DNA of 64,000 bases from Escherichia phage E26. Location: sequence record MN655998.1. The stretch is one strand, 5' to 3'. Both the position numbers and the translations under genes were made by a program. Below, piece after piece: positions 16,026-35,886 of this stretch. The notes beneath the pieces are model-generated. The model was not told the DNA's origin. It saw nothing but the letters and a program-made list of their open reading frames with translations, and searched no databases. How positions within the stretch are numbered: position 1 is the stretch's first letter; every line of letters begins with the position of its first letter.

Positions 16026-16035
16026 TAAGCGAAAG

Positions 16036-16060
16036 GCGGGGATAATCCCCGCCTTTTTAT
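16036..16060 (+). terminator. Rho-independent terminator after gene 54
   Basis: GGCGGGGA-TAA-TCCCCGCC hairpin followed by TTTTTATTT. Confidence 0.65.
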
Positions 16061-16569: not shown

Positions 16570-17390
16570 TTAGTCACCTCACCGAAAATTGTAAATTGTC
16601 TACGATTCTCATCACCGAAAGATTCTACTACGTCGTTTACCTTGACGCAAGTCCCGCGCGGTAAAATTACTTCACATTCGCAAGGATTCCATGCAATTGA
16701 CCCAACAACAAAACCTTTATGATCTTTTACGTCAATTACCCACGATACATTACAAGAATGTTGCATCTTTCCGGTCATGGATTCATATCGATTCTCACAA
16801 TAAAGGCTAGTGCTGTTTGATAGCCAGCCTCCAAAGATGATCGGTGTCATGCTGGTTGACACAAAGTTTTTAAAGGTAAATTCCTTATCTTCAATAATAC
16901 GCTCTATTGTCTGAATGTCAAGATGTTGACCGCGATAAAGAGTACCGTTTAACTTTTCGGTTTTATCCATGACGCAATCCATCAAATCAACAATCTCTGA
17001 TATCTCATCGGTCATGTCTTCTTCCCCTAAGAGAGCACCATTTACCCATTCGTATTGTTCAGACACATAATCACAGATTGCATTATATTCTGCTGGGGTT
17101 ATGTTGTTATGTTTGTAATGTTTGAATACATTATCTCCAAAGTCTTCGGAGTGTACTTCATACATCACATTAATGATTTTCTTGACAAATCCATAATCTT
17201 GTGTCTCACGCTCAAGGAAGCGGATAACCTTCACATAATCATCAAAGTTAATCTGATCGCTGATCATCTCAGTGATCATGTAACCATTAATCCCCTCAAT
17301 GTCATATGTTTCGATGTAATTATCCATACGTTCCATCATTGATTCGCGTGATTCTTCTGAAAGACGAAAATCCTGTAATTTCTTGAACAT
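16566..17390 (-). CDS. Alt-like ADP-ribosyltransferase paralog (catalytic domain only)
   Basis: 274 aa; R-S-E ART motifs LYRGQHLD, FVSTS, ECEVILPRG, parallel to those in the adjacent Alt. Confidence 0.7.
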   Translation of the reverse strand: MFKKLQDFRLSEESRESMMERMDNYIETYDIEGINGYMITEMISDQINFDDYVKVIRFLERETQDYGFVKKIINVMYEVHSEDFGDNVFKHYKHNNITPAEYNAICDYVSEQYEWVNGALLGEEDMTDEISEIVDLMDCVMDKTEKLNGTLYRGQHLDIQTIERIIEDKEFTFKNFVSTSMTPIIFGGWLSNSTSLYCENRYESMTGKMQHSCNVSWVIDVKDHKGFVVGSIAWNPCECEVILPRGTCVKVNDVVESFGDENRRQFTIFGEVTK

Positions 17391-17468: not shown

Positions 17469-19520
17469 TTACATTTTAAATTTATCTGGCATTGCGTCTA
17501 CAGATACCAGATCAGCGATAAGCTGACGTAGAGTTGCCTTATCTGCTTTCTTACGTTCGGTTTTAGCTTCGCTAATGAAGCTGGAGAAAGACAGGTCAGA
17601 AGCAGGTTTAACAACACCTTCACGGATGAATGCATCACCGTCCGCGATCATCTCGCCAGATTCTTGTAATGCTGCCAGTTCATTTTTGTTCATAATATGT
17701 GCCTCAATGTAATAAGTTTCTTGTGAATCCGTCGATGCCGTAGCACGAGTTACCGTATCAAAGGATAACACAACACCGCGAGGAAGTAAAATCTCGCATT
17801 CTTTGTAAGCAAATGCTTTGTTACCTACTGGCAAGACAGGGATGTTTTCCGCGCCAGCAATGGAGAAAGCAACATTAGCGCCACCTTCACCGCGAGAGCC
17901 AGCCATAGAATCAACACCAGCAACGGCACTAGCCACGTTTGCATTCCAGCCGCCAAAAATGTTAGGTGCAAGGGAAGTGCTCACATAGTTTTTAAAGTAA
18001 AACGCTTTTTGCTTACGTGCAGTTTCCCACATTTGCGACCGGAAGTCCATACCACGATACAGAATAGTACCCGGATCAAGTTTAACTCCATAGTTGGAGA
18101 AGGCATTATCCAGTGCATCGCACATCTTGACCAATTCTTCTGGATCTGCGATGCCTTCAAACTCTTCCAGCTTACGATCAGTTAGGAAGTTGTTCATATT
18201 GATGTATGCTGCATCGGCATATTCGCTCAATACAAAACCTTCCGCGCCAGGCAGATCAAGATCAATATCTGCCATCATTTCACCCATGTTGCTAGCAATT
18301 GCTTCAAACATACCGGAAGCAACATTACGTAGGGCATCGGTTTTAATCTGTGTGATGTGACTACGCAGCATTTCAGCTTTTACATCTGCTGGCATAGACT
18401 GGTCTACTCGATCCATTGCCAGGGCGGTGATCTTGTTTTCGAATACTTCCTCGCTCATGATTTCTTTTAAGCGTTTGATTGATGCTGCGATAACTTCCGC
18501 AGACAACGGATCATATTGATCCTGAACTTTTACCAGTTCGCTTACTGCGTATTTTGCATCGGCTTCGCTTTCAAAAATAGTACGCATGAAACCATAGCGA
18601 GTGATAATATCACTTGTCCAGTCATTCAGAGAACGGGCGGTTGAACGTTCTAAGGCTTGACGATCAATCAGAGTATTAAACTGTTTCTTAGGTTCGGCTT
18701 CGGTGATATCTTCTTCTGGTTTAAGATTAATTTTTTCTGGATGATTCACGTAGTCGCTGTTATATGTCGCTTGAGTTTTCAGCATTTCTTCTTTAGTCAA
18801 ACGAGATTTAGCCGCTACGCGTTGTTCTGCTTCCGCGTTTCGTTCTTCTTCTGACACAAGACTAGCCGCATATGCCTCATCTTTAGTCAGAGATTCACCA
18901 GTAGCCTTAGATACCCAGCGATCACCTAAATCACTTTCTACTTTAGTGAACAAGGATTCATCAAGTTTAATCCCTTTAATCTTATCAATCGCCATCCCGC
19001 GACGCTTGACAACAACTAAAGCGATCTTTTTGCTGGTCATTACTTCCTGCTGGAATACTTCAAACTTCGGTGTACGACGCACCAAACGCTCTATAACGCG
19101 CTTAACCAGTTCGGTCTTACCTTTCATGCGGGATACGTTAAAACGGAACATAACAGCGTCTAATTGCGCTTTACGGGCTGTTTCCATAACCACATCAAAA
19201 GCACTTGCCATAACTGCAATCGGGTTATCGCCTAGACCATTTTTAAGCTGTACAATACGACCGCTTTTGTTCATTTCGCACAGTACAACATGTGCGGTTT
19301 TGTCACCCATACGAATGATTTTAGGTGTTTTGTTGGTGAAGTTACAAAGACGGACAATCACATCTTTATCGCGTGTCTGTACTGCAAAAAGCTGTTTAGG
19401 ATTCTGCTTAGGCTTTAAGCACTGTACCGGAGCAATACTGCCAAAGTTTTCTTCCTCTTCCGTCAACAGCCATTTCTCGAAAGATTCAATCATTAGATCG
19501 TCGATTTCTAAGTTAAACAT
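17469..19520 (-). CDS. alt: Alt ADP-ribosyltransferase
   Basis: 683 aa; ART motifs LYRGMDF, YVSTSL, ECEILLPRG; size and position as T4 Alt. Confidence 0.85.
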   Translation of the reverse strand: MFNLEIDDLMIESFEKWLLTEEEENFGSIAPVQCLKPKQNPKQLFAVQTRDKDVIVRLCNFTNKTPKIIRMGDKTAHVVLCEMNKSGRIVQLKNGLGDNPIAVMASAFDVVMETARKAQLDAVMFRFNVSRMKGKTELVKRVIERLVRRTPKFEVFQQEVMTSKKIALVVVKRRGMAIDKIKGIKLDESLFTKVESDLGDRWVSKATGESLTKDEAYAASLVSEEERNAEAEQRVAAKSRLTKEEMLKTQATYNSDYVNHPEKINLKPEEDITEAEPKKQFNTLIDRQALERSTARSLNDWTSDIITRYGFMRTIFESEADAKYAVSELVKVQDQYDPLSAEVIAASIKRLKEIMSEEVFENKITALAMDRVDQSMPADVKAEMLRSHITQIKTDALRNVASGMFEAIASNMGEMMADIDLDLPGAEGFVLSEYADAAYINMNNFLTDRKLEEFEGIADPEELVKMCDALDNAFSNYGVKLDPGTILYRGMDFRSQMWETARKQKAFYFKNYVSTSLAPNIFGGWNANVASAVAGVDSMAGSRGEGGANVAFSIAGAENIPVLPVGNKAFAYKECEILLPRGVVLSFDTVTRATASTDSQETYYIEAHIMNKNELAALQESGEMIADGDAFIREGVVKPASDLSFSSFISEAKTERKKADKATLRQLIADLVSVDAMPDKFKM

Positions 19521-19560
19521 TTTATATCCTCTAGTTGATAACCTATAAACCTATATTTAT

Positions 19561-19582
19561 GAAAAGGGGGCTTAACGCCCCC
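19561..19582 (-). terminator. Rho-independent terminator (minus strand)
   Basis: GGGGGC-TTAAC-GCCCCC hairpin with U-run on minus strand. Confidence 0.55.
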
Positions 19583-19587
19583 ATTTA

Positions 19588-19800
19588 TTATAATGCACCA
19601 TCGAGCAATTGCTCTAATGTGTATCCTGAATAGTCTTTTTCAATCAGGATATATTTTCCTACTCGTTTAATACAACCGCGCATTTCAACGTATTCTGCGT
19701 AGTTGATGGTGCGAGTTGTTCCATCTTCTAGCAAAGCAGTACCGATTTCGTTAATGCGGTCATAAGTTACGTCGGTAATGATGATTTCGATGTTAGCCAT
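19588..19800 (-). CDS. small hypothetical protein
   Basis: 70 aa; preceded by promoter cassette and SD; N-terminus MANIE shared with ORF 21684..21935. Confidence 0.55.
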   Translation of the reverse strand: MANIEIIITDVTYDRINEIGTALLEDGTTRTINYAEYVEMRGCIKRVGKYILIEKDYSGYTLEQLLDGAL

Positions 19801-19836
19801 TTGATACTCCTTAGTAGTTCGTTTCGGTATGGGTGT

Positions 19837-19865
19837 ATTATGATATACACCCTCTGTTATGTCAA
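19837..19865 (-). promoter_or_regulatory. PeSL-like early promoter cassette 1
   Basis: Minus strand TTGACA-N17-CATAAT; palindrome GGGTGTAT..ATACACCC across the -10. Confidence 0.55.
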
Positions 19866-19871
19866 CAACTT

Positions 19872-20051
19872 TTAGAACATTTTTGAAATTAATTCTGCTT
19901 TGATTTCGCAGAGAACATCTAAAGATTTCTCGTCACCCGCTTTTGCTGCTTCTGATTGCATTTTTGAAATGGCTTCAACGTAAGTGCAATTATAAGCCGC
20001 TTGAACTTTAGCGATTGCGATGATTGCCGATTCGATGGTTAAGTGTTTCAT
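19872..20051 (-). CDS. small hypothetical protein (59 aa)
   Basis: Manual translation MKHLTIESAIIAIAKVQAAY...; SD GGAGAATCAA; not in ORF track. Confidence 0.4.
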   Translation of the reverse strand: MKHLTIESAIIAIAKVQAAYNCTYVEAISKMQSEAAKAGDEKSLDVLCEIKAELISKMF

Positions 20052-20083
20052 GTTTGATTCTCCTTTCGTTTCGGTATGTGTGC

Positions 20084-20112
20084 ATTATAGGGGATCACCG
20101 ATCCCCTGTCAA
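20084..20112 (-). promoter_or_regulatory. PeSL-like early promoter cassette 2
   Basis: TTGACA-GGGGATCGGTGATCCCC-TATAAT; perfect palindromic spacer with two GATC sites. Confidence 0.6.
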
Positions 20113-20676
20113 CAACTTTTTTGAATTATTTTTTAATTGCTCATCTTGTAATAGAGCAATAACATGCTGGCGATGTTCTTCCGATTGAGGCACACCGAAA
20201 AAGTTTGTTTTGTAGAAATATTCTAATCGATCTTCTCGTGTGCTCTCTTCCATCATGATCGCGGGTAGTCCGAGATTTCGGAAACGTCGCTTTTCTGCTG
20301 GCGTAAAATCACTGTAATACAACATAGAATCATCATTACCAGCAATGCTAAACTCATCTTTCATAAAGGAGAATATTGCGTTTAAACGCTGTTTACCGTC
20401 CACGATTTCGATCTCATAGCGAGAGCCATCATCAATCTTAGCCATTGCGATAGCACCAACCGGAAAATCATTAATCAGGTTTTCGATAAACATACGTTTG
20501 TTTTCGGTGTCCCATACCAAAGGACGCTGATAATCTGGGTTCATGTTGATATAGCCATCTTCTAACCACGCCTCATAAACAGAGATGACAAAGTTTTTAG
20601 TATTGGTATAGTAACGGCGTTTAGGCGTTAAACGGTTCATGTTATAGTCTCCTGAATGGATCATCACGTAAATCAA
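20095..20676 (-). CDS. DUF262 (ParB-like / GmrSD N-terminal domain) protein
   Basis: 193 aa; signature motifs PDYQRPLVW and VDGKQRLNAI. Confidence 0.7.
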   Translation of the reverse strand: MIYVMIHSGDYNMNRLTPKRRYYTNTKNFVISVYEAWLEDGYINMNPDYQRPLVWDTENKRMFIENLINDFPVGAIAMAKIDDGSRYEIEIVDGKQRLNAIFSFMKDEFSIAGNDDSMLYYSDFTPAEKRRFRNLGLPAIMMEESTREDRLEYFYKTNFFGVPQSEEHRQHVIALLQDEQLKNNSKKLLTGDR

Positions 20677-20971
20677 TATCTTTTAAGAACTCATCCCATG
20701 AATGGCGGATATTGTTCTTAATTCTCCAGATAAGCGCAGGGATTGAACGCTCTCCCATCTGGAAGTAAGGATCATATGATCCATATGCCCAATATGCTAC
20801 TACAATTCCACAATCAGCGCAATAATATTCTATTTCACTTGCTGGCGACCAAAGTCCATCAATATGATCGGTGATCCTGCTTTCGATGTTATGGCTATGG
20901 CAATCAGGGCAACGGATGCAATGACCTTGTTTATCGTAATTTGACGTTAGCGAATACTTAAACAATCTCAT
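20642..20971 (-). CDS. zinc-ribbon protein
   Basis: 109 aa; CIRCPDCHSH and CADCG Cys pairs; overlaps both neighbours. Confidence 0.5.
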   Translation of the reverse strand: MRLFKYSLTSNYDKQGHCIRCPDCHSHNIESRITDHIDGLWSPASEIEYYCADCGIVVAYWAYGSYDPYFQMGERSIPALIWRIKNNIRHSWDEFLKDIDLRDDPFRRL

Positions 20972-21687
20972 TATAGATCCTTATTTGCTTCAAATACTGC
21001 CTTTGCGAATCCTCGCGGGGTAAGTGACCTTATAGTCTTTGTTTTCGTTCCTTTCCCGCCTAGCTTAGAATGCTGTTTACTGTACCCTTTATTAATCTGC
21101 AACGGTTTCTTTTCTGGCATTATAAAGCCTTGTCCGGTCCATAAGCAAGTCCTTTTCGGGTACATATCACGGGCGGCAATATACTCAGGAAAAGTAGGAT
21201 GTTTATCATCTTCCGGCAAATAACCGCCATATTCCCACGGATGGAACATATAATCAGGCTTACGCCACATGCTAGAGATAACGCTTACAGGATTCTCTAT
21301 CATGTAGGGAACTCCTAGCCATTCACCCAAATAAGCGGTTATTTTAGCTGCCCGTACATCATGAACTTGAATCAATGGTCCTTGCTCTCGTTTCTTTCGT
21401 TCAAAGTGTGCAGCGCCACTAACAGCTAAATTGGTGCACGGTGGGAATGCAAATATAATATCCGGTTTCCCCCATTCAAGGTCCATTGCTCTTTCTAGCC
21501 AGTTCAAATCAATCCATGTGTTTACATATGTAATGTTTGGATGTTCAAATCGGGTATTATATTTTTTGTATGTACCGTGGTCGCCATCGTCAGCATTAAA
21601 GCAGATCACCTTATGACCTGCTTTAGCCCATTCTAACCCCATTATCCCCGATCCGTCAAAGTTGCAGAATATTAATTTTTGTTTCAC
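20971..21687 (-). CDS. minimal C5-cytosine methyltransferase-like protein
   Basis: 238 aa; motif I-like FDGSGIMGLE, motif IV-like FAFPPCTNLAVSGA, motif VI-like MIENPV, motif IX-like RSLTPRGFAKAV in correct order and spacing. Confidence 0.6.
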   Translation of the reverse strand: MKQKLIFCNFDGSGIMGLEWAKAGHKVICFNADDGDHGTYKKYNTRFEHPNITYVNTWIDLNWLERAMDLEWGKPDIIFAFPPCTNLAVSGAAHFERKKREQGPLIQVHDVRAAKITAYLGEWLGVPYMIENPVSVISSMWRKPDYMFHPWEYGGYLPEDDKHPTFPEYIAARDMYPKRTCLWTGQGFIMPEKKPLQINKGYSKQHSKLGGKGTKTKTIRSLTPRGFAKAVFEANKDL

Positions 21688-21935
21688 GCTGCCCCCATTG
21701 GTTTGATAGTAACAGAATCTAAAAGACCTTTGTTAGCCAGTTCGCGGCAAGTTTTCAGATCCGCAACTTCCCAGCCAGCCGCAATCAGGTTATCAATCAG
21801 GCTGTTAGCAATTTCTTCGCTCATGAAAGAGCACTGTTTGCCGATGGTGTAGCGTACACGCTGTAATTTCAGTTTACGGAAGCCTTTAACGTTCAGGTCT
21901 TTAGCGATTTTCTTTGCGGTTTCGATGTTAGCCAT
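21684..21935 (-). CDS. small hypothetical protein
   Basis: 83 aa; preceded by promoter cassette and SD. Confidence 0.55.
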   Translation of the reverse strand: MANIETAKKIAKDLNVKGFRKLKLQRVRYTIGKQCSFMSEEIANSLIDNLIAAGWEVADLKTCRELANKGLLDSVTIKPMGAA

Positions 21936-21975
21936 TGTTTGATTCTCCTAAGTGGTATCTCGTCTTGATGGTTGT

Positions 21976-22004
21976 ATTGTAGGGGAGTTATCCTCCCCTG
22001 TCAA
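21976..22004 (-). promoter_or_regulatory. PeSL-like early promoter cassette 3
   Basis: TTGACA-GGGGAGGATAACTCCCC-TACAAT; palindromic spacer. Confidence 0.55.
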
Positions 22005-22018
22005 CACTTTTTATAAAA

Positions 22019-22186
22019 TTATTTGTTAATTTCCGGTGCGTTGCTTGGATAGTAACCTTCTTTAACTCCGAGGTATTTCGCAACCATCCCTACAATCTTC
22101 TGTGCTACTACAATGTCAAATTTCAGATAATCTTCACCGTAGGTTTCAATGATATATGCTTCACATGCTGCTTTAGTCTCGAACAT
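22019..22186 (-). CDS. small hypothetical protein (55 aa), paralog of 25287..25454
   Basis: Manual translation MFETKAACEAYIIETYGEDYLKFDIVVAQKIVGMVAKYLGVKEGYYPSNAPEINK; not in ORF track. Confidence 0.5.
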   Translation of the reverse strand: MFETKAACEAYIIETYGEDYLKFDIVVAQKIVGMVAKYLGVKEGYYPSNAPEINK

Positions 22187-22219
22187 TTTGATTCTCCTAT
22201 TTCGTTTCGGTATGTGTGT

Positions 22220-22248
22220 ATTATAGGGGATCTCCCGATCCCCGTCAA
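22220..22248 (-). promoter_or_regulatory. PeSL-like early promoter cassette 4
   Basis: TTGACG-GGGATCGGGAGATCCCC-TATAAT; palindrome with GATC sites. Confidence 0.6.
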
Positions 22249-22263
22249 CAACTTTTTTTAAAA

Positions 22264-22545
22264 TTATTCGTGATTAGTTTCGATGTTGTGCATTTTGCAC
22301 CAGTTCAGCCAATCGCCCAGTTCTTGATAGTTGATGCTTTTATCTGCTGCCATCGTTTTTGTCTTGATACCCATATGTGCGTTATGAGTAAGCATTTTTA
22401 CAGTGAACTCGATTTTATCGCCTTTAGCTTTAACATCAACCAGTTTGGTCCACTGGCTACCAGCACCGCGAATGTTCATGCCAACGATGTTTCCGATGTA
22501 TGCTTCTTTGTTTTTCAGGATTTCGGTTGCTTTGATGAATTTCAT
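22264..22545 (-). CDS. small hypothetical protein
   Basis: 93 aa; promoter cassette and SD upstream. Confidence 0.55.
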   Translation of the reverse strand: MKFIKATEILKNKEAYIGNIVGMNIRGAGSQWTKLVDVKAKGDKIEFTVKMLTHNAHMGIKTKTMAADKSINYQELGDWLNWCKMHNIETNHE

Positions 22546-22578
22546 TTTTGATTCTCCAGTTCGTTTCGGTATGGGTGT

Positions 22579-22607
22579 ATTATGCTATGTTCTTACTTTG
22601 GTGTCAA
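22579..22607 (-). promoter_or_regulatory. PeSL-like early promoter cassette 5
   Basis: TTGACA-N17-CATAAT. Confidence 0.5.
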
Positions 22608-22615
22608 CAACTTTT

Positions 22616-22885
22616 TTAGATATTTTCAGAAATAAATTTTAAAACTTGACGTAAATGTTTCTCATCTTTGATAGTCGCCGGAAGTTCTTCTTTTACTTCC
22701 TGTGCAAGATAGATATTTCCGTTCCAAGTGAAAGATCCGTCTTCGTTTACGCGATAGCTGAACATCCACTCGCAATCATTTTCGATTTCATATACACACA
22801 GAAGAGTGTAATCTTCAAAGCTATTGAGTTCAAGGTCGAAGCCGTGACGTTTTGCAAAGTTGGTAGTGGTTTTAGTCAGTGCCAT
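22616..22885 (-). CDS. small hypothetical protein
   Basis: 89 aa; promoter cassette and SD upstream. Confidence 0.55.
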   Translation of the reverse strand: MALTKTTTNFAKRHGFDLELNSFEDYTLLCVYEIENDCEWMFSYRVNEDGSFTWNGNIYLAQEVKEELPATIKDEKHLRQVLKFISENI

Positions 22886-22925
22886 TGTTTGATTCTCCTA
22901 AGTGGTATCTCGTTTCGATGTGTGT

Positions 22926-22954
22926 ATTATGCTATAGGCGTGTTCTGGTGTCAA
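22926..22954 (-). promoter_or_regulatory. PeSL-like early promoter cassette 6
   Basis: TTGACA-N17-CATAAT. Confidence 0.5.
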
Positions 22955-22978
22955 TTCTTTTTTTAAAATTTTATGCAA

Positions 22979-23004
22979 TAAAAAAGCCGACGCTAAGGTC
23001 GGCT
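22979..23004 (-). terminator. Rho-independent terminator (minus strand)
   Basis: AGCCGAC-GCTAAG-GTCGGCT hairpin; U-run on minus strand. Confidence 0.55.
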
Positions 23005-23011
23005 AATAAAA

Positions 23012-23320
23012 TCATTTAGACAAATAATCATTCTGTGCAATCCGGTCAGCATGTTCCGGCGTTACGTCAATTGCAATCACTTTAACGCGTGCTTTCTTGC
23101 GACCTGGGTTTTCTCGTAGCCAGTGCGTGTGACCGTACAAATTTTTATACTTTGATGCTTCTTCGAAGGTACGGATCGGACCTGGGTAATCAGCGTAAAG
23201 GATCTCTAGATCTTCGGTGATGTAAAAATATACATCGTAATTGCTGTTCTCTAGCTTAAGCAGAGACTTTCGGAACATTGGGAGATTTTCGCGGGTAAAT
23301 TCAAAGATATTATCTTTCAT
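23012..23320 (-). CDS. HxHW-AVDV family protein, copy A
   Basis: 102 aa from internal Met MKDNIFEF; motifs VYFYITEDL, HTHW, IAIDV; track N-terminus reads through the terminator hairpin. Confidence 0.55.
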   Translation of the reverse strand: MKDNIFEFTRENLPMFRKSLLKLENSNYDVYFYITEDLEILYADYPGPIRTFEEASKYKNLYGHTHWLRENPGRKKARVKVIAIDVTPEHADRIAQNDYLSK

Positions 23321-23343
23321 AGTATTATCCTCAATAGTTGGAT

Positions 23344-23366
23344 GAAAAGGGGGGCTTAACGCCCCC
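23344..23366 (-). terminator. Rho-independent terminator (minus strand)
   Basis: GGGGGGC-TTAAC-GCCCCC hairpin. Confidence 0.5.
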
Positions 23367-23371
23367 ATATA

Positions 23372-23659
23372 TTAAAACAGTCCTTCCTGTACACCGTAAT
23401 AGAGTTCGTCGCTGATAATTTCATTAATGCGACGGTGTGCATATTCCTGATTTGCGAAGTTGTCAGCAAGTTCTACTTTAGTTTCTCCGTCATGAGTCCA
23501 TTTAGTGATAACTTTACCATCTGCAAATTTGAAGTTGAACTCTTTAGCTACCGCATCGCGTACCAGACGTGCAAACTTATTGTTGCGGATTGCATTGTCG
23601 GTTTCGTGTGCAGCGTGAGCGAATTTGTTAACTTTCAGAGTGATAGTAATGTATGCCAT
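23372..23659 (-). CDS. small hypothetical protein (AKEFN motif)
   Basis: 95 aa; shares AKEFN-containing segment with ORF 26672..26983. Confidence 0.55.
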   Translation of the reverse strand: MAYITITLKVNKFAHAAHETDNAIRNNKFARLVRDAVAKEFNFKFADGKVITKWTHDGETKVELADNFANQEYAHRRINEIISDELYYGVQEGLF

Positions 23660-23705
23660 AATTTGATTCTCCTAGTTAGAAAGTGTATCTCGTTTCGATG
23701 GGTGT

Positions 23706-23734
23706 ATTATGCTATACACCCGACCTTATGTCAA
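23706..23734 (-). promoter_or_regulatory. PeSL-like early promoter cassette 7
   Basis: TTGACA-N17-CATAAT; palindrome GGGTGTAT..ATACACCC across -10. Confidence 0.55.
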
Positions 23735-23740
23735 CACTTT

Positions 23741-24019
23741 TTATAAAATAATTTTTTGATATTTTTCTATGATGTTCGTGTAAGTCACATCAACCGCTAG
23801 CACCGTTGCTTCGAATCCACCGTTTAGCCAATGGCTATGGTCATGATCGTGAAAGAAACCAAGACCAGTACGAAGACCTTCTTTATATTCTGCGCGTACA
23901 TTTAGATCATCATCGATAAACAGATAAAACCATGAATTTTTACTAGGATTGATGATACAACCTTTCAGATTAGGGAGAATATCACGACTAAGAATAAACT
24001 TATCACCTACTTTGAACAT
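23741..24019 (-). CDS. HxHW-AVDV family protein, copy B
   Basis: 92 aa from internal Met MFKVGDKF (SD GAGGA); motifs WFYLFIDDDL, HDHDHSHW, LAVDV. Confidence 0.55.
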   Translation of the reverse strand: MFKVGDKFILSRDILPNLKGCIINPSKNSWFYLFIDDDLNVRAEYKEGLRTGLGFFHDHDHSHWLNGGFEATVLAVDVTYTNIIEKYQKIIL

Positions 24020-24033
24020 AATATTTTCCTCAC

Positions 24034-24342
24034 TTATAAAGTTTGACCGTTGTTTTTCGCGTAATGCTGAATGCGTGCTTGATCTGCTTCCGCTGGTGAT
24101 AGATTCCATGCAACCACTACAACTTCTGACGCATCGTCATCCGTTTTTGATACCCAATGATTATGATTCATACAATTGTTTGCTATCGCGTGAGCAAATG
24201 ATTTCATCACTGGAGATGTATAATCATAGTAACGGATTTTCAGATTTTCATCAACATACAAGTAGATCGTATAAGGTTTATATTCAGTAACCAGTAACAG
24301 ACAGTTACGCAATTCTGGGAAAATCTTTTTAGTTAATTTCAT
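24034..24342 (-). CDS. HxHW-AVDV family protein, copy C (divergent)
   Basis: 102 aa from internal Met MKLTKKIF (SD GAGGA); motifs YLYVDENL, NHNHW. Confidence 0.5.
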   Translation of the reverse strand: MKLTKKIFPELRNCLLLVTEYKPYTIYLYVDENLKIRYYDYTSPVMKSFAHAIANNCMNHNHWVSKTDDDASEVVVVAWNLSPAEADQARIQHYAKNNGQTL

Positions 24343-24343
24343 T

Positions 24344-24565
24344 TTATAATCCTCGGTCGCGGCTATAGTACACGGTACGCCATACAATTTCATGTTTCGT
24401 GTCGCTCCAGCACACGATCTCATTTACTCTTAAATCTTTGTTATCAACAAAAGATGAACATTGTGACGTTTCTTTCATCATTTTATCTGCTGTTTTCTCA
24501 TCAAATACAGCACAGATTTCTTTATACACTCGATAATCTTTAAACTTGCTCATAATTAACACCAA
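24344..24565 (-). CDS. small hypothetical protein (MSKFKDY family)
   Basis: 73 aa; tandem paralog of 24556..24765; start may be the internal MSKFKDY Met. Confidence 0.5.
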   Translation of the reverse strand: MVLIMSKFKDYRVYKEICAVFDEKTADKMMKETSQCSSFVDNKDLRVNEIVCWSDTKHEIVWRTVYYSRDRGL

Positions 24566-24765
24566 TCAAGAGTTTTTGAAAACACATCTATCCATTGTTG
24601 AGTATATGCGGTTTCTTTCCATGATACAATACCGGTAGAATAATGGTTTTTGTTTCCAGAAAAGGACGGGCATTTTGATGCATCTTCCATCATCTTTTCG
24701 GCGAACTCTGGTTCGTATACTCGCAAGATCTGTTGATATGCTTTGTAGTCTTTAAATTTGCTCAT
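24556..24765 (-). CDS. small hypothetical protein (MSKFKDY family)
   Basis: 69 aa; MSKFKDYKAY...MMEDASKCPSF parallel to neighbour. Confidence 0.5.
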   Translation of the reverse strand: MSKFKDYKAYQQILRVYEPEFAEKMMEDASKCPSFSGNKNHYSTGIVSWKETAYTQQWIDVFSKTLDWC

Positions 24766-25030
24766 AATCGTTAACTACCTTATCAGCTTCTTTTATTGTT
24801 TTTACATCAACTGCGATAACCCGTAAAGGTTCGTCGTGGTTCCACCAATGATCGTGAATATCAGCTTGTGATTTATCACCAAAGGAATCACGAATATCAT
24901 TTTTACATTTATAGCTAATGTGACCGTCATAGTCAACATAAAGGTAATTATCGAAAATCGGCGTTTTTAAGATCATACCGAAAAATCTTTCTTTGTGTGT
25001 CTTATCCAGCGTTGCAGTAATTCGCATCAT
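24752..25030 (-). CDS. HxHW-AVDV family protein, copy D
   Basis: 92 aa; motifs YLYVDYDG, HDHWW, IAVDV. Confidence 0.55.
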   Translation of the reverse strand: MMRITATLDKTHKERFFGMILKTPIFDNYLYVDYDGHISYKCKNDIRDSFGDKSQADIHDHWWNHDEPLRVIAVDVKTIKEADKVVNDYEQI

Positions 25031-25042
25031 AATATATTCCTC

Positions 25043-25222
25043 TTAGAAAGGGATGGTCATTTCTTGAGCTTGTACATTCTCGTTAGGATTAAACTTCATC
25101 CAACCGATATTGTCTACCAGCATATGTACATTTTTATCATACCCTACGTGAGTAGTCAACACTAAATGTGCTTTACCTTCAACGATGATTTCCATGTACT
25201 TCTGAACTTCGATAGCTTTCAT
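25043..25222 (-). CDS. small hypothetical protein (59 aa)
   Basis: Manual translation MKAIEVQKYMEIIVEGKAHLV...; SD GGAGAATCAA; not in ORF track. Confidence 0.4.
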   Translation of the reverse strand: MKAIEVQKYMEIIVEGKAHLVLTTHVGYDKNVHMLVDNIGWMKFNPNENVQAQEMTIPF

Positions 25223-25254
25223 TTTGATTCTCCGTTTGTTGTCTTGATGGGAGT

Positions 25255-25283
25255 ATCTTACTACTCCCTTTAATCATTGTCAA
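25255..25283 (-). promoter_or_regulatory. PeSL-like early promoter cassette 8
   Basis: TTGACA-N17-TAAGAT; palindrome GGGAGTA..TACTCCC across -10. Confidence 0.5.
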
Positions 25284-25286
25284 CTA

Positions 25287-25454
25287 TTATTTGTTAATTT
25301 CCGGTGCGTTGCTTGGATAGTAACCTTCTTTAACACCCAGATATTTTGCAACCATTCCGGTGATCTTCTGTGCTACTACGATATCGAATTTCAGGTAGTC
25401 TTCACCGTGGGTTGCTACAATGTATGCTTCGCATTCTGCTTTAGTCTGGAACAT
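25287..25454 (-). CDS. small hypothetical protein (55 aa), paralog of 22019..22186
   Basis: Manual translation MFQTKAECEAYIVATHGEDYLKFDIVVAQKITGMVAKYLGVKEGYYPSNAPEINK; not in ORF track. Confidence 0.5.
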   Translation of the reverse strand: MFQTKAECEAYIVATHGEDYLKFDIVVAQKITGMVAKYLGVKEGYYPSNAPEINK

Positions 25455-25488
25455 TTTTGATTCTCCTATATCTCGTTGGTATGTGTGT

Positions 25489-25518
25489 ATTATAGGGGAT
25501 CTCCCGATCCCCTGTCAA
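25489..25518 (-). promoter_or_regulatory. PeSL-like early promoter cassette 9
   Basis: TTGACA-GGGGATCGGGAGATCCCC-TATAAT (18-nt palindromic spacer with GATC sites). Confidence 0.6.
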
Positions 25519-25526
25519 CAACTTTT

Positions 25527-25835
25527 TTATTCTTCATCTTCATTTTTATCTTTATATGCGTACTTCATAAATTTGTCTGCTACTTTGTCCGCGTTTTCAG
25601 GTTCTACGTCTGACGCTAGGACAACAGCTAGTTCGGTTTTGTCGTTTCCATCATACCAATGATTATGAGTGTCGTTTTCTTTGATATAAAACGAATCATT
25701 TGGAGTTGTGCGACAATATACGTCTAAATTCCCATCGATATAAAAGATCCAATCCGAATACAAAATGATTGTTTTAGCCAGATTTTTATTGTCTCTTACA
25801 AAAGGTTCCGCGACAAATAGCTTAGTTTGTTCCAT
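25527..25835 (-). CDS. HxHW-AVDV family protein, copy E
   Basis: 102 aa from internal Met MEQTKLFV (SD GAGGAAA); motifs IFYIDGNL, THNHW, LAVVLASDV. Confidence 0.55.
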   Translation of the reverse strand: MEQTKLFVAEPFVRDNKNLAKTIILYSDWIFYIDGNLDVYCRTTPNDSFYIKENDTHNHWYDGNDKTELAVVLASDVEPENADKVADKFMKYAYKDKNEDEE

Positions 25836-25851
25836 AGTAATTTCCTCAAAA

Positions 25852-26043
25852 TTATACAGCTTCGTAAACTTCCCAATGTCCAACACCAGCACGCTTAACG
25901 AAAAGGTTTTCTTTGATGTTATTCATAAACGTCTGGATGGATTTAATGCGGTTGGAAGGTTTCCAGTCTTCGTTAGCATTGCGGCGATACATTATAACAT
26001 TACCAGATCGCTTATATTCAGCAACCATTTTAAGACCACACAT
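25852..26043 (-). CDS. small hypothetical protein
   Basis: 63 aa; SD GAGGA upstream. Confidence 0.45.
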   Translation of the reverse strand: MCGLKMVAEYKRSGNVIMYRRNANEDWKPSNRIKSIQTFMNNIKENLFVKRAGVGHWEVYEAV

Positions 26044-26099
26044 AATAATATCCTCAATTTGTGGGAGAGTATTACCCTCCCAATTATTGTTATACTACA

Positions 26100-26402
26100 T
26101 TACGCAAAATGGCGTGTCAATGCTTCTTTTGCTGTTCCGCTAAGATTCTCGATCTCTCCTGGCATAACATCAACCGCCAGAACTTCTACAACATCCTCTG
26201 ATCCTAACCAGTGAGTATGACCTTTGTAGAACTTGATATCCCATTTAACGCTATCGCTAGCCCACCACACATCACCGTCGATAAAGTTGATGTAAAGCAC
26301 ACTACGACACATTGAATTAATTACTTTCAATACTGCGCCTTTCATCTCTTCCACGGTATGGTCTTCCATTTTGAAGACCTCACCTACCTGAACTTTTGCC
26401 AT
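26100..26402 (-). CDS. HxHW-AVDV family protein, copy F
   Basis: 100 aa; motifs LYINFIDGDV, HTHW, LAVDV; SD AGAGGTG. Confidence 0.55.
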   Translation of the reverse strand: MAKVQVGEVFKMEDHTVEEMKGAVLKVINSMCRSVLYINFIDGDVWWASDSVKWDIKFYKGHTHWLGSEDVVEVLAVDVMPGEIENLSGTAKEALTRHFA

Positions 26403-26419
26403 TTAGTCACCTCTCTTTA

Positions 26420-26599
26420 TTACATAACAATCACGCCAGCCGTTGAAAGTTGATGTTTCAACTGAGCATTTTCTGCTACCGTCAAATCAATGATTTCTTG
26501 TGACGCTGCAATCATATAGCCATTGGTGATATTGTTTTGCATCAGTTCAATGGTTTCTTCGTTGTAGCGGATTTTAGCGATGATTTCGTTGAAGTTCAT
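26420..26599 (-). CDS. small hypothetical protein (59 aa)
   Basis: Manual translation MNFNEIIAKIRYNEETIELMQNN...; not in ORF track. Confidence 0.4.
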   Translation of the reverse strand: MNFNEIIAKIRYNEETIELMQNNITNGYMIAASQEIIDLTVAENAQLKHQLSTAGVIVM

Positions 26600-26633
26600 A
26601 ATTGATTCTCCTAGTTCGTTTCGGTATGTGTGT

Positions 26634-26663
26634 ATTATAGGGGAGTTTAGCCTCCCCTGTCAA
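26634..26663 (-). promoter_or_regulatory. PeSL-like early promoter cassette 10
   Basis: TTGACA-GGGGAGGCTAAACTCCCC-TATAAT; palindromic spacer. Confidence 0.55.
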
Positions 26664-26671
26664 CAACTTTT

Positions 26672-26983
26672 TTAAAGTTTTTCCATGATAACGGTCATAA
26701 TTACATCTTCTGCGCGAGCGGTCAGATTATCAGCGTCAGCATGTGGGCGGTTGGTTGTTACAGAGATAACACCGTTGCGCACTGGTTTGATATTGATATC
26801 AAGATGATCCGCGAAACGTTCGCCAGTTACAGAATGAATTTTGGTGTTAAATTCTTTTGCCAGTGCCTTGCGAACTTCACGAATCAGGATAGCGTTTTTC
26901 AGTTGGTTCTCCGCGCTCATGGTCTTCTGGGTGTTCATGGTTCCGTCGAAGTCAATCATTGGCAGCGTTACGATGTATTTCAT
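26672..26983 (-). CDS. small hypothetical protein (AKEFN motif)
   Basis: 103 aa; paralogous segment with 23372..23659. Confidence 0.55.
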   Translation of the reverse strand: MKYIVTLPMIDFDGTMNTQKTMSAENQLKNAILIREVRKALAKEFNTKIHSVTGERFADHLDINIKPVRNGVISVTTNRPHADADNLTARAEDVIMTVIMEKL

Positions 26984-27028
26984 TTTTGATTCTCCGTTTA
27001 AGAAAGTGTGTTTCGTTTTGATGTGTGT

Positions 27029-27057
27029 AGTATAGGGGATCGGTGATCCCCTGTCAA
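27029..27057 (-). promoter_or_regulatory. PeSL-like early promoter cassette 11
   Basis: TTGACA-GGGGATCACCGATCCCC-TATACT. Confidence 0.55.
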
Positions 27058-27070
27058 CAACTTTTTTGAA

Positions 27071-27415
27071 TTATTTTTTCATGAGCTTAATTGCTTCTTC
27101 CATAGCCAACACATTTCGATAGTTAGGGTATCGTGTTAGATCGTCATACATTCGCTTAAGGGTGGAAACTTCCTCAAACTCTGGGTTTTCTAGATACAGT
27201 TGAACAAATTGTTTCTCTATCATCTCTGCTTTTAGCTTGTCTGCTTGTTCCTGTTCATATGATTTAGTTGGACCCAACACCAACAAAATGATAAAGGTGA
27301 TCAACGGGCTAATGATCAACGATAGGATAACATAACCGATAACGCTACGGTTTAAACGGCTTGCATACATGCCTACCAGGAAAACAAAAAGGATATAGAT
27401 AAACAGAAAGAACAT
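27071..27415 (-). CDS. membrane protein
   Basis: 114 aa; two N-terminal transmembrane helices. Confidence 0.5.
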   Translation of the reverse strand: MFFLFIYILFVFLVGMYASRLNRSVIGYVILSLIISPLITFIILLVLGPTKSYEQEQADKLKAEMIEKQFVQLYLENPEFEEVSTLKRMYDDLTRYPNYRNVLAMEEAIKLMKK

Positions 27416-27422
27416 ATAATGG

Positions 27423-27896
27423 TTACTCCTTATTTTCGCGCTCGTACTTTTCGAAATAAAATTCTACTGGCTGGTCATTAATTGACAGCAAGCCAAAGCG
27501 TTTAGCCGCTCGCAATCCCATATTGCGCTGAATGTACTTCTGGAAGTTCTCGCGTATACACTTACGCCAGTATTCTAAGCCCATACAGCTTTTATAAAGA
27601 TTGCATTGCACACACGCCGGATTCATGTTATCAAGTATATCATGTTCCGGTTTATGCATTCCTACAACCTTATACTTCCACGATCCATCATCATTACGGG
27701 CAATTCGTCCATTTTCATCATAGACTACCTTTGAGCGTCGCAATACTGGTTTGATGTGGTCTGCGTGCCAGCGATCCCCTAGTTCCTCGCCACAATAGGC
27801 ACAACGTCCACCATATTTCATTTTCAGGATCTGGCGTTGCTCTTTCTTTGACAATTTTTTAGGTTTAGGGGCTTTTGCCCCTTCATTATCACACAT
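27423..27896 (-). CDS. HNH endonuclease (freestanding, homing-endonuclease-like)
   Basis: 157 aa; CAYCGEEL...WHADHIKP HNH core and second Cys pair CVQCN; start overlaps end of ligase gene. Confidence 0.75.
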   Translation of the reverse strand: MCDNEGAKAPKPKKLSKKEQRQILKMKYGGRCAYCGEELGDRWHADHIKPVLRRSKVVYDENGRIARNDDGSWKYKVVGMHKPEHDILDNMNPACVQCNLYKSCMGLEYWRKCIRENFQKYIQRNMGLRAAKRFGLLSINDQPVEFYFEKYERENKE

Positions 27897-35878: not shown

Positions 35879-35886
35879 CTGCTTTT

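Follow-up and report, generated by a model that had tools for sequence, protein, structure and literature searches.

The closest described counterparts of this locus are the hyperplastic regions of the T4-type coliphages RB49 and phi1, in which Arbiol, Comeau, Kutateladze, Adamia, and Krisch (2010, Genome Biol Evol, PMC2839356) described repeated promoter-stem-loop-SD cassettes (PeSLs), and which were revisited in a follow-up paper (Comeau et al. 2014, PMC4122927). Within the ORF185-212 cluster, whose member ORFan192 was assigned to 'HPR3', PeSL206/205 is a strong promoter in phi1, the PeSL211/210 stem-loop has terminator activity, and PeSL mini-circles were detected in RB49/phi1 for ORFan192 and ORF210, those of ORF210 in both phages (PMC2839356). 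The same paper reported homology between RB49 ORF211 and an ORF from a Vibrio superintegron and drew an analogy with integron gene cassettes; a term search of it gave no match for paralogs or gene duplication.

Here, we analyzed a 64,000-nt stretch of Escherichia phage E26 (MN655998.1; the window), which shares 93-97% DNA identity with 63 Krischvirus records and can be assigned to this RB49/phi1/JSE-like group of T4-type coliphages. Positions 19521-27888 very probably constitute the hyperplastic region between alt and gene 30 of an RB49-type (Krischvirus) T4-like coliphage, a unidirectional, PeSL-bounded array of 25 genes carrying accessory cargo. The region is the already published "hyperplastic region" of RB49-like coliphages, and its layout is understood. 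The original prediction, made from the letters alone, had placed such a region of minus-strand small ORFs between alt (17469-19520) and DNA ligase (27889-29391), which was borne out, every small ORF lying on the minus strand; the anticipated array of about 28 ORFs of 50-240 aa came to 25 credible ORFs of 55-238 aa. These correspond 1:1 to RB49/phi1 ORFs 185-212 (87-100% nucleotide identity). Among relatives, full-length identity of alt is 96-99% (12 of 12), and gene 30 is 96-98% identical. The genes are as follows.

17469..19520, minus strand: alt, Alt-like RNA polymerase ADP-ribosyltransferase, conserved downstream border; alt in the RB49 and phi1 annotation
19588..19800, minus strand: ORF185, 70 aa, ORFan with its own PeSL (19801-19865); phrog_10679 (3.5e-42); in 12/12 relatives
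19872..20051, minus strand: ORF186, 59 aa, PeSL-flanked single-gene cassette; missing in PHB13, Cognac, JK32, and MIZ4
20095..20640, minus strand: ORF187, 181 aa, DUF262/GmrSD_N-only; Pfam PF03235 (3.4e-20)
20642..20971, minus strand: ORF188, 109 aa, Cys-rich, zinc-ribbon-like; phrog_2993 (6.6e-34)
20971..21687, minus strand: ORF189, 238 aa, GTG start, C5-cytosine DNA methyltransferase-like; phrog_757 'DNA methyltransferase' (7e-90)
21684..21935, minus strand: ORF190, 83 aa, first gene of its operon, PeSL 191/190 (21936-22004); phrog_14908 (1.3e-58)
22019..22186, minus strand: ORF191, 55 aa, ORF205 paralog; phrog_8009; direct repeat D5
22264..22545, minus strand: ORF193, 93 aa, single-gene unit with its own PeSL; phrog_10521
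22616..22885, minus strand: ORF194, 89 aa, single-gene unit
23012..23320, minus strand: ORF197, 102 aa, HxHW member 1; phrog_9345; AF2 model, pLDDT 81.5
23372..23659, minus strand: ORF198, 95 aa, AKEFN motif, remote ORF210 paralog; phrog_7474 (4.8e-43)
23741..24019, minus strand: ORF199, 92 aa, HxHW member 2, end of the 204-199 operon; phrog_17255
24034..24342, minus strand: ORF200, 102 aa, HxHW member 3; phrog_9345
24344..24765, minus strand: ORF201 (24344-24553) and ORF202 (24556-24765), MSKFKDY tandem; both phrog_8471
24752..25030, minus strand: ORF203, 92 aa, HxHW member 4; phrog_15972
25043..25222, minus strand: ORF204, 59 aa, first gene of its operon, PeSL 205/204; phrog_15082
25287..25454, minus strand: ORF205, 55 aa, ORF191 paralog with its own PeSL 206/205; phrog_8009
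25527..25835, minus strand: ORF206, 102 aa, HxHW member 5; BLASTP links, shared H/H/W
25852..26043, minus strand: ORF207, 63 aa, ORFan; phrog_16334; in 12/12 relatives
26100..26402, minus strand: ORF208, 100 aa, HxHW member 6; phrog_16486
26420..26599, minus strand: ORF209, 59 aa, ORFan with its own PeSL 210/209; phrog_14803
26672..26983, minus strand: ORF210, 103 aa, AKEFN motif, PeSL-flanked cassette; phrog_7474; missing in JK32 and SFHK24
27071..27415, minus strand: ORF211, 114 aa, hydrophobic N-terminus as read from sequence; phrog_25625
27423..27896, minus strand: ORF212, 157 aa, HNH endonuclease; phrog_2118 (5e-54); in 12/12 relatives
27889..29391, minus strand: gene 30, ATP-dependent DNA ligase, conserved upstream border; gp30 in the relatives' annotation

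Flanking genes and ORF series are the same as in RB49/phi1, the cassettes are built alike (AT-rich tract, -35/-10, stem-loop in variable positions, SD), and cassette-bounded indels of the same kind occur in both. Only the mosaic sets this phage apart: ORFs 189.1, 192, and 195/196 are absent, ORF211 is of the RB49 type, and a phi1-type ORF206 allele is combined with an RB49-type ORF201 allele.

The repeat-family, promoter-scan, and intergenic listings place 12 PeSL cassettes (promoter plus SD) among the 25 ORFs. Each is a 60-90-bp composite of a near-consensus sigma-70 promoter, usually a G+C-rich stem-loop, and a leader with the SD GGAGAATCAA, arranged in the order AT-rich run, TTGACA, 16-18 nt, -10 box, conserved CGAAACGA block, GGAGAATCAA, and ATG. 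In the promoter scan, the 12 minus-strand promoters matched 10-12 of 12 consensus positions, with an SD block after each. A stem-loop is predicted for 10 cassettes; the other two, PeSLs 194/193 and 197/194, yield no convincing one. The region makes up 13% of the 64-kb window and holds 12 of its 24 promoter+SD cassettes. With 12 PeSLs, about half of the ORFs (12/25) have a cassette of their own, and not most of them as originally proposed; the others lie in short operons, with gaps of at most 17 nt or overlaps. The several internal terminators foreseen were recovered as two, plus a third at the array end, of which a near-copy (32 nt; repeat family D11, 91% identity) lies at 23346-23377.

19801..27057, minus strand: span of the 12 PeSL cassettes (repeat families D1-D4 and D6; promoter scan; whole-window count)
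19804-19865, 20057-20112, 21942-22004, 22191-22248, 22551-22607, 22892-22954, minus strand: PeSLs 1-6
23666-23734, 25227-25283, 25460-25518, 26050-26120, 26605-26663, 26989-27057, minus strand: PeSLs 7-12
19566..19582, minus strand: intrinsic terminator, GGGGGCGTTAAGCCCCC plus T-run, at the array end ahead of alt (terminator scan)
22985..23004, minus strand: internal intrinsic terminator after ORF197 (terminator scan; annotated in Ec_Makalu_001 and G2494)
23350..23366, minus strand: internal intrinsic terminator in the ORF198/ORF197 gap (terminator scan; annotated in G2494)

The 12 PeSLs divide the array into ∼13 short transcription units, each probably fired by the host RNA polymerase from its PeSL directly after infection, while the PeSL stem-loop may damp read-through out of the upstream unit. 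For this phage both steps are read from sequence, and for the orthologous phi1/RB49 cassettes they come from experiment; promoter, terminator, and mini-circle activities can be carried over by analogy from these 95-99% identical cassettes.

The genes to which a function can be assigned by sequence similarity are C5-methyltransferase-like (ORF189), DUF262-only (ORF187), and HNH endonuclease (ORF212, with 27 bits to Pfam HNH against a cut-off of 21.4 and a start overlapping the gene 30 end by 8 nt). ORF187, the final gene of the 190-189-188-187 operon, has the N-terminal DUF262 (PF03235) of GmrSD/BrxU-type DUF262-DUF1524 type IV restriction enzymes. Unlike these, it is phage encoded beside a methyltransferase-like gene and ends after DUF262, at 181 aa, therefore lacking the DUF1524/HNH nuclease half. 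It also matches the N-terminal halves of PADLOC NsnA (1.4e-20, confined to that half of the profile) and PD-T4-2_A, PADLOC matches thus being at domain level only. ORF189 matches the short phage C5-cytosine DNA methyltransferases of phrog_757 ('Dcm' in several phages) over its full length and is 57-65% identical to Salmonella/Escherichia phage homologs; its >7000 homolog clusters carry the UniRef name C-5 cytosine-specific DNA methylase, a few of them with PF00145. The PHROG/UniRef names, together with FDGSGIMG, FPPC, and ENP read by eye as motifs I, IV (PPC), and VI, point to a C5-methyltransferase-like protein. It differs from this type in that Pfam PF00145 and NCBIfam models were not reached at E ≤0.01, and Pfam, NCBIfam, and PDB sequence searches gave no match. 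Typical bacterial C5 methyltransferases are longer than its 238 aa. ORF188 matches Pfam Zn_Ribbon_TF weakly (8.5e-4, under the curated cut-off). One operon joins a C5-methyltransferase-like, a DUF262-only, and a zinc-ribbon-like protein, with self-methylation against restriction as its likely role.

Because function is assignable for few of the 25 genes, we can only infer host or defence modulation, which the ∼20 ORFans, the four paralog families below among them, would most likely exert early via protein binding. As originally suggested, an anti-defence role of the small ORFs is plausible. That the region is chiefly an anti-defence/host-takeover island, in which most small proteins, particularly the six paralogs of the HxHW family and ORF194 with its wide distribution, inhibit immune or housekeeping proteins of bacteria and an arms race underlies the plasticity, is a possible but rather doubtful reading, which would add to the structural explanation without replacing it. 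Early-type promoters precede all units, gene presence varies in close relatives with alternative alleles of ORFs 201, 203, and 206, and non-synonymous changes equal or exceed synonymous ones in ORFs 186, 197, 204, 206, 207, and 210. ORFs 188, 189, 193, and 194 are common to unrelated phage groups, as is often the case for accessory genes; the methyltransferase-like gene is compatible with anti-restriction, and the DUF262-only protein is similar to defence proteins in their N-terminal half. However, none of five tested ORFs matched a solved structure or known anti-defence protein by sequence, neither of two structure models could be convincingly assigned to the fold of a known inhibitor, and the best matches of ORF194 are generic RWD-like folds. 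The viability of the natural variants Cognac and MIZ4 without 13 and 6 region genes, respectively, fits dispensability but is silent on targets.

Sequence comparisons support four paralog families: HxHW (six members), 191/205, 201/202, and 198/210. As proposed originally, the HxHW family has six members, which pairwise BLASTP connects (E 4e-12 to 6e-2) and in which H, H, and W residues are invariant, and the MSKFKDY pair (24344..24565/24556..24765) is 42% identical (E 3e-17, z 23). The suggested kinship of the AKEFN pair ORF198/ORF210 held weakly: both belong to phrog_7474, and Smith-Waterman alignment matches them locally over 24 residues (z 5.8, a score that 2 of 2000 shuffles attained); BLASTP does not detect the pair. 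The MANIE ORFs (19588..19800/21684..21935), listed as a third pair, were rejected as paralogs: only their first five residues match (z 0.3), BLASTP returns no alignment, and their PHROGs differ. A stronger pair, missed earlier, is ORF191/ORF205, with proteins 89% identical (E 3e-36) and DNA 87% identical over the 172-nt direct repeat D5.

T4 shares neighbours and gene order with this phage (54, alt, 30, 30.3, 31, cd) and likewise clusters small early ORFs around gene 30, but its cluster (30.1-30.9) lies on the other side of that gene. The few small ORFs it was thought to hold between alt and gene 30 are exactly one, alt.1 (189 nt), which runs against the same ORF set being conserved and syntenic across distant T4-type phages. 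When 22 ORFs (all except 187, 189, and 212) were queried by tblastn against 50,697 phage records, matches outside Krischvirus among the sampled rows were limited to ORFs 188 (in unrelated phages), 193 (in Klebsiella T4-like phages), 194 (a family found across unrelated phage groups), and, weakly, 198, the only one matching the T4 group (Tequatrovirus, E 4e-4). The near-emptiness of the T4 interval, the superintegron homolog reported for RB49 ORF211, and the integron-like gain and loss of cassettes via circles could indicate a recently acquired foreign mobile element, e.g., an integron-like or transposon-borne island, not grown in place. We consider this highly improbable, since G+C content (0.36-0.43) and strand skews are those of the surrounding minus-strand genes, promoters of the type that forms the repeats recur in other parts of the window, all Krischvirus records examined carry the array, and the region showed neither an integrase or transposase nor any attC-like site, its sole nuclease being HNH. 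The PeSL array shares with integron cassettes its one- or few-gene units, small circular intermediates, and repeated boundaries; it differs in having neither integrase nor attC/attI, in repeats that are promoter-terminator cassettes, in an own promoter per unit, and in general homologous recombination. Scarcely credible is the reading that many of the small ORFs arose by chance and that regulatory or spacer DNA makes up most of the region, even though 14 of the 25 ORFs are <100 aa and only 3 reach a Pfam curated cut-off, since full-length matches to PHROG families exist for all 25 ORFs, an SD precedes most listed starts, two structure models fold with confidence (pLDDT 81 and 93), and variable sites among 12 relatives are strongly biased to the third codon position in nearly every ORF (ORF185 0/2/15, ORF198 3/1/25, ORF209 0/0/7), much as in alt (17/4/141), a bias that marks the ORFs as real genes.

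Returning to the PeSL-bounded array, comparison with relatives shows its plasticity: the alt-ligase interval spans 5093 to 9683 bp across 12 relatives, with ∼12 distinct indels or replacements. At least 80% of the region is covered in only 20 of 63 related records, and the neighbouring baseplate block, covered in 55 of 59, is far more stable. ORF211 is missing in Ec_Makalu_001, phi1, JK32, SFHK24, MIZ4, and kaaroe; ORF201 has two alleles (99% and ∼72% identity), as does ORF206 (95-99% or 76-78%). Breakpoints of two deletions fall in hybrid PeSLs. In PHB13 and Cognac, a single hybrid cassette, derived at its 5′ end from PeSL187/186 and at its 3′ end from PeSL186/185, stands precisely where ORF186 is missing, and in Cognac, which lacks ∼3.3 kb, a cassette of the 206/205 type has become fused to an ORF of the 191 type. 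Some indels end outside cassettes: ORF189.1, the JSE/G2494 extra ORF upstream of 208, and the kaaroe extra ORF lie at junctions between genes within operons, where homology extends over only 3-16 nt.

The cassettes are mutually 60-90% alike and thus offer portable homology to the phage's own recombination system. A crossover between two PeSLs would delete or excise the intervening genes, circular products having been detected experimentally in RB49 and phi1 and not in this phage; the same type of exchange could insert genes or swap alleles, and short homology at overlapping operon-internal junctions may provide a minor second route. The cargo genes are accessory. Most ORFs are nevertheless found in at least 10 of 12 relatives and the gene set is largely syntenic inside Krischvirus, so that "hyperplastic" denotes a common scaffold modified by indels and allele swaps.

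Megablast of the region under study, 19521-27888, against 50,697 phage records matched 63 of them, all from Krischvirus or RB49-like coliphages, with identities of 93-97%; the top matches Delraymugoa, Aragogtheria and vB_EcoM_011D4 covered 100% of the region at ~96% identity. These matches, together with the flanking alt (17469-19520) and ATP-dependent DNA ligase gene 30 (27889-29391), assign E26 by sequence to the pseudo-T-even RB49/phi1/JSE group of phages. The small ORFs between the two flanking genes had been put at about 28 in the original prediction. This was slightly high, and 25 credible ORFs of 55-238 aa, every one on the minus strand, remained after matching to the annotations of 12 relatives, among them phi1, RB49, and JSE. 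They correspond to ORFs 185-212 of RB49/phi1, whose numbering is used here; ORFs 189.1, 192, 195, 196, and 196.1 of that series are lacking in E26. Each of the 25 had a full-length match to a PHROG family, in almost all cases of unknown function. The comparison with the 12 relatives directly supported coding constraint, and the small ORFs are real genes: variable sites fell mainly at third codon positions (first/second/third: ORF185, 0/2/15; ORF198, 3/1/25; ORF193, 3/1/16; ORF209, 0/0/7; alt as comparison, 17/4/141). Non-synonymous variants equaled or outnumbered synonymous ones in ORFs 186, 197, 204, 206, 207, and 210.

Two further genes were observed next to the region. Directly downstream of alt, the minus strand encodes a second, shorter ADP-ribosyltransferase (16566-17390; 274 aa; PF03496, 4e-16; phrog_15144), whose RB49 counterpart carries an annotation of similarity to the C-terminal portion of Alt. 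A minus-strand ORF of 205 aa (30448-31065), located upstream of gene 31 (30088-30411), has NUMOD4 and HNH_3 domains and is therefore probably a homing endonuclease. A CDS of comparable size (612 nt) occupies this spot in PHB13, and RB49, Delraymugoa, and JSE have none, the next gene in RB49 being 31.1, a pattern that suggests insertion of a mobile endonuclease.

The reading of 19521-27888 as a hyperplastic region was correct in both nature and location, and has been in the literature since 2010. Comparison of phi1 and RB49 led to the definition of hyperplastic regions, in which ORFans and PeSL (promoter-early stem-loop) cassettes abound, and ORFan192 was assigned to an ORFan cluster in HPR3 (Arbiol et al. 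2010, PMC2839356). By the phi1 and RB49 annotations, the cluster comprises ORFs 185-212, flanked by alt and gene 30. Three phi1/RB49 cassettes were assayed, namely 206/205, 193/192, and 211/210 (each named after the ORFs on its two sides); PeSL206/205 proved to be a very strong promoter, and the PeSL211/210 stem-loop terminated transcription as well as rrnB T1 (PMC2839356). Recombination of neighboring PeSLs yields mini-circles with ORFs 192-193, 191-194, or 210 as cargo; their junctions fall in the stem-loop or in the stretch from the -10 box to the SD (PMC2839356). A subsequent study broadened the occurrence of PeSLs to further T4-like phages (PMC4122927). The E26 locus shares with the published region a promoter after an AT-rich tract, a variably placed stem-loop, and a 3′ end with an SD and an ORFan start codon, as well as the concentration of cassettes in a variable region where indels between close relatives break in cassettes. 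Early promoter strength, hairpin termination, and mini-circle formation would carry over to E26 from orthologous cassettes that are 95-99% identical. The description of promoter cassettes, SD sequences, and terminators in the original prediction is thus an independent rediscovery of a published feature. Since the 2010 publication already described the architecture and evolution of the region, from experiments on the same ORF cluster in RB49/phi1, the finding raises no new question.

The cassettes of E26 were delineated from the intergenic listing, repeat families D1-D4 and D6, and a scan for promoter-like sites, which together revealed 12 composite copies in the region. Each is composed of an A/T run, (GT)TGACA, a 16-18-nt spacer, the -10 box, a conserved leader of the ACACATACCGAAACGA type, the SD block GGAGAATCAA, and ATG. 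All 12 minus-strand promoter sites fit 10-12 of 12 consensus positions and have an A/T run upstream; the SD block GGAGAATCAA lies 3-6 nt ahead of the ATG in 10 cassettes, and an 11th has GGAGTATCAA. A G+C-rich hairpin occurs in 10 of the 12, located between -35 and -10 (six cassettes; GGGGATC...GATCCCC), over the -10 box (three), or downstream (one); two cassettes have none. This anatomy and the enrichment of cassettes in the region are directly supported by our data: the strict promoter plus SD pattern occurs 24 times in the 64-kb window, 12 of them within the region, which makes up 13% of the window. That most ORFs have a cassette of their own was an overstatement, as cassettes precede 12 of the 25, directly 5′ of ORFs 185, 186, 190, 191, 193, 194, 198, 204, 205, 207, 209, and 210. 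The remaining 13, with the exception of ORF197, overlap their upstream neighbor or lie at most 17 nt from it, and therefore form short operons such as 190-189-188-187 and 204-203-202-201-200-199.

Elsewhere in the window, further clusters of minus-strand promoter plus SD cassettes were observed at 35821-36785, 38996-39049, 44139-44574, and 62641-63775, some with the GGGGATC...GATCCCC hairpin (e.g., 62864-62919). These clusters probably mark additional hyperplastic regions of the E26 genome.

The internal terminators that had been claimed were recovered by a terminator scan, which found three classical intrinsic terminators:

19566-19582, intrinsic terminator, within one copy of the 32-nt repeat D11 (19562-19593)
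22985-23004, intrinsic terminator
23350-23366, intrinsic terminator, within the other copy of D11 (23346-23377)

The two D11 copies are 91% identical and lie after ORF185 and between ORF198 and ORF197; the array thus repeats terminators in addition to promoters, and the 32-nt element could also act as a recombination site. ORF197 (23012-23320), 51 nt downstream of ORF198, follows just after the terminator at 23350-23366 and has no cassette of its own, an arrangement that would make its expression dependent on read-through. Of all the ORFs, it also diverges most among the relatives (88-94% identity; 34 synonymous versus 37 non-synonymous variants).

To compare gene content, the locus was taken from the 12 relatives, each ORF of the window was mapped onto it, and alignments were chained for breakpoints. 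The interval from alt to gene 30 ranges from 5093 bp in Cognac to 9683 bp in RB49 (8368 bp in E26), and its flanks are kept at 96-99% identity.

Table. Gain, loss, and replacement of genes between alt and gene 30 in E26 and its relatives
ORF186: absent from PHB13, Cognac, JK32, and MIZ4
ORFs 186-191, including the methyltransferase operon (6 genes): missing from MIZ4
ORF189.1: absent from E26, JSE, and JK32; present in most relatives
ORF191: missing from JK32
ORF192: insertion in RB49 and G2494, at the 193/191 cassette; JSE carries a different ORF there
ORFs 193-205 (~3.3 kb, 13 genes): missing from Cognac
ORFs 195/196: inserted upstream of ORF197 in RB49, JK32, and MIZ4
ORF210: missing from JK32 and SFHK24
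ORF211: absent from Ec_Makalu_001, phi1, JK32, SFHK24, MIZ4, and kaaroe
Extra ORF upstream of ORF208: JSE and G2494
Extra ORF between ORFs 187 and 188: kaaroe
Allele replacement: ORF201 (99% or 72% identity), ORF206 (95-99% or 76-78%), ORF203 (70% in phi1)
ORFs 199-201: replaced in JSE

Two of these events, read base by base, left junctions inside cassettes. At the ORF186 site, PHB13 and Cognac carry a single hybrid cassette that combines a 5′ part of the 187/186 type (stem-loop GGGGATCGGTGATCCCC and -10 box) with a 3′ part of the 186/185 type (ACTACTAAGGAGTATCAA-ATG), the crossover lying within the shared CATACCGAAACGA block. The 3.3-kb deletion in Cognac joined a 206/205-type cassette to a 191-type coding sequence by a crossover inside GGAGAATCAAAATGTTC, at the SD/start-codon block, removing everything between the ORF191 and ORF205 copies. 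Both hybrid junctions agree with the prediction of the PeSL model. By rough alignment chaining, cassette intergenic regions also hold the breakpoints of the ORF192 and ORF195/196 insertions, of the ORF191 loss in JK32, and of the MIZ4 deletion. A minority of events, the loss of ORF189.1 and two others, map outside cassettes and involve short homology at gene junctions inside operons. In E26, the similar 5′ ends of ORFs 189.1 and 189 were joined (TGAAA.AAAATTAAT), leaving ORF189 with a GTG start (21671-21690); this was a recombination of short homology within the operon rather than a cassette-mediated one. Variability was also evident in coverage by related records: the region was covered to at least 80% in 20 of 63 records (334 places), and a neighboring control baseplate block of equal length (8000-16367; 8368 bp) in 55 of 59 (60 places). 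The indels and allele swaps at the genus level and the two junctions inside cassettes are direct observations. Together, the 12 genomes, most of them sequenced after the 2010 study, confirm the PeSL model with natural recombinants whose junctions lie inside cassettes. Origin of the region as a foreign island was rejected because its composition matches that of its surroundings and no recombinase was found in it.

The same ORF set was not found in synteny across distant T4-type phages. In T4 the corresponding interval holds alt.1 (189 nt) alone, and the 30.1-30.9 cluster is on the far side of gene 30. When 22 of the small ORFs (all but ORFs 187, 189, and 212) were concatenated as a tblastn query, 655 phage records matched, and among 60 matches sampled across the ranking, those outside Krischvirus involved only ORFs 194, 193, 188, and, weakly, 198. 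In this sample, ORF193 matched Klebsiella T4-like phages, ORF188 several unrelated phages of ~42-88 kb, ORF198 two Tequatrovirus-size phages, and ORF194 many ~50-kb siphoviruses, ~150-kb myoviruses, and Campylobacter, Vibrio, and Morganella phages. Homologs of ORF194 (22616-22885; 89 aa) with 40-70% identity occur in many unrelated phage groups, including the BASEL phage DanielBernoulli (a siphovirus of ~50 kb) and phages of Campylobacter, Vibrio, Serratia, and Pseudomonas, and its predicted structure is a confident, RWD-like model; ORF194 is a widely exchanged accessory protein.

Paralogy was assessed by all-against-all BLASTP, alignment, and Smith-Waterman with shuffling. The proposed six-member HxHW family held as a single family (ORFs 197, 199, 200, 203, 206, and 208) with invariant H64, H66, and W67 (ORF197 numbering), and so did the MSKFKDY pair, ORFs 201/202 (42% identity; E 3e-17). 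The AKEFN pair, ORFs 198/210, gave no BLASTP alignment but a local match over 24 residues at z 5.8, a score attained in 2 of 2000 shuffles; both proteins match phrog_7474 (~1e-43), and we accepted them as putative remote paralogs. In contrast, the MANIE pair, ORFs 185/190, was rejected, as BLASTP produced no alignment, the Smith-Waterman z was 0.3, the PHROGs differ, and the best local alignment spans the first five residues alone. A pair missed by the original prediction, ORF191 (22019-22186) and ORF205 (25287-25454), encodes proteins of 55 aa each that are 89% identical, within a 172-nt DNA repeat (87%); the cassettes upstream of them (22187-22263 and 25455-25526) are alike. The revised list, with one pair removed and one added, comprises 25 real genes and four paralog families. 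The HxHW family comprises 88 clusters at 90% identity, and an exhaustive profile search of 1.8 billion proteins recovered only 20 representative clusters at 50%. The AF2 model of ORF197 is reasonable (pLDDT 81.5; pTM 0.79) and consists of a beta-sheet and a C-terminal helix. Its significant Foldseek matches among viral models were Escherichia phage proteins of similar size, taken as family members, and this search yielded no structural match beyond them that would assign a fold.

Among the remaining ORFs, the operon 190-189-188-187 contains the sole DNA modification-related genes seen in the region, ORF189 and ORF187. ORF187 has an N-terminal DUF262/GmrSD_N domain (PF03235, 3.4e-20; 73 bits versus a cut-off of 33), which matches positions 5-78 of 199 of the Pfam profile and 47-189 of 385 of NsnA; its PADLOC matches cover the N-terminal half alone of NsnA and PD-T4-2_A. 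The protein ends at 181 aa and a C-terminal DUF1524/HNH nuclease domain was not found, so we did not class it as a member of the DUF262-DUF1524 group. ORF188 is Cys-rich and zinc ribbon-like, with a Pfam match under the curated cut-off. ORF189 matches phrog_757, "DNA methyltransferase" (7e-90), and its homologs form over 7000 clusters under the name C-5 cytosine-specific DNA methylase, a few close homologs carrying PF00145; ORF189 itself had no Pfam (PF00145), NCBIfam, or PDB sequence match at the thresholds used, and a weak PADLOC match to MTase_II (7e-4). Inspection of its translation by eye, with no profile alignment, pointed to the SAM-binding motif I (FxGxG; FDGSGIMG), the catalytic Pro-Cys motif IV (PPC; FAFPPCTNLAVSG), and the ENV motif VI (YMIENPV) of methyltransferases. 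ORF189 may methylate phage DNA against restriction. A module of DUF262, zinc ribbon, and methyltransferase was not found outside Krischvirus, and ORF189 homologs in two other phages have different neighbors. The Krischvirus phage SAP reportedly contains 5-hmdC and glycosylated (glucosyl/gentiobiosyl-methyl) cytosines, and TB34, 99.96% identical, canonical ones; the SAP modification was left unexplained, with no known pathway genes in the genus (2026, PMC13390438). Given this near identity, the gene content of the region cannot account for the difference between SAP and TB34 and was ruled out as its cause. ORF189 and ORF187 are worth comparing with the SAP cytosine modification (PMC13390438), no link being claimed.

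Next to gene 30, ORF212 is a predicted HNH endonuclease (HNH motif domain, PF01844, 27 bits versus a cut-off of 21.4; phrog_2118, 5e-54). ORF211 has a PHROG of its own and, by eye from sequence, a hydrophobic N-terminus. Its RB49 counterpart was likened to an ORF of a Vibrio superintegron (PMC2839356).

The original prediction had also pointed to the region as a likely location of anti-defense genes. This reading is plausible, as expression would be early, gene presence varies, some genes have alternative alleles, and some are common to unrelated phages, and we infer that the cargo modulates the host or its defenses. Among the ORFs searched by sequence or by structure model, none resembled a known anti-defense protein of solved structure (Acr, Tad, Acb, Ocr, Gp1.2, etc.), PDB sequence searches with ORFs 187, 189, 193, 194, and 198 gave no meaningful match (listed hits, E 0.08 or worse), and no known anti-defense family was found, PADLOC hits being at the domain level only. 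It is unlikely, on our own estimate, that the HxHW proteins are genus-restricted, recently expanded early inhibitors or small-molecule/metal binders, with a defense target for each paralog, or that ORF187, with ORF189, antagonizes GmrSD/BrxU-type restriction enzymes as a decoy or in a dominant-negative manner. What remains are ~20 early accessory proteins, of which the HxHW family and ORF194 are reasonable candidates for an anti-defense screen, and Cognac, without 13 genes, and MIZ4, without six, are ready-made natural deletion mutants. The remaining novelty of the region is in its uncharacterized proteins, the HxHW family foremost; if true, either the HxHW or the ORF187 reading would represent a new anti-defense mechanism within an otherwise known region.
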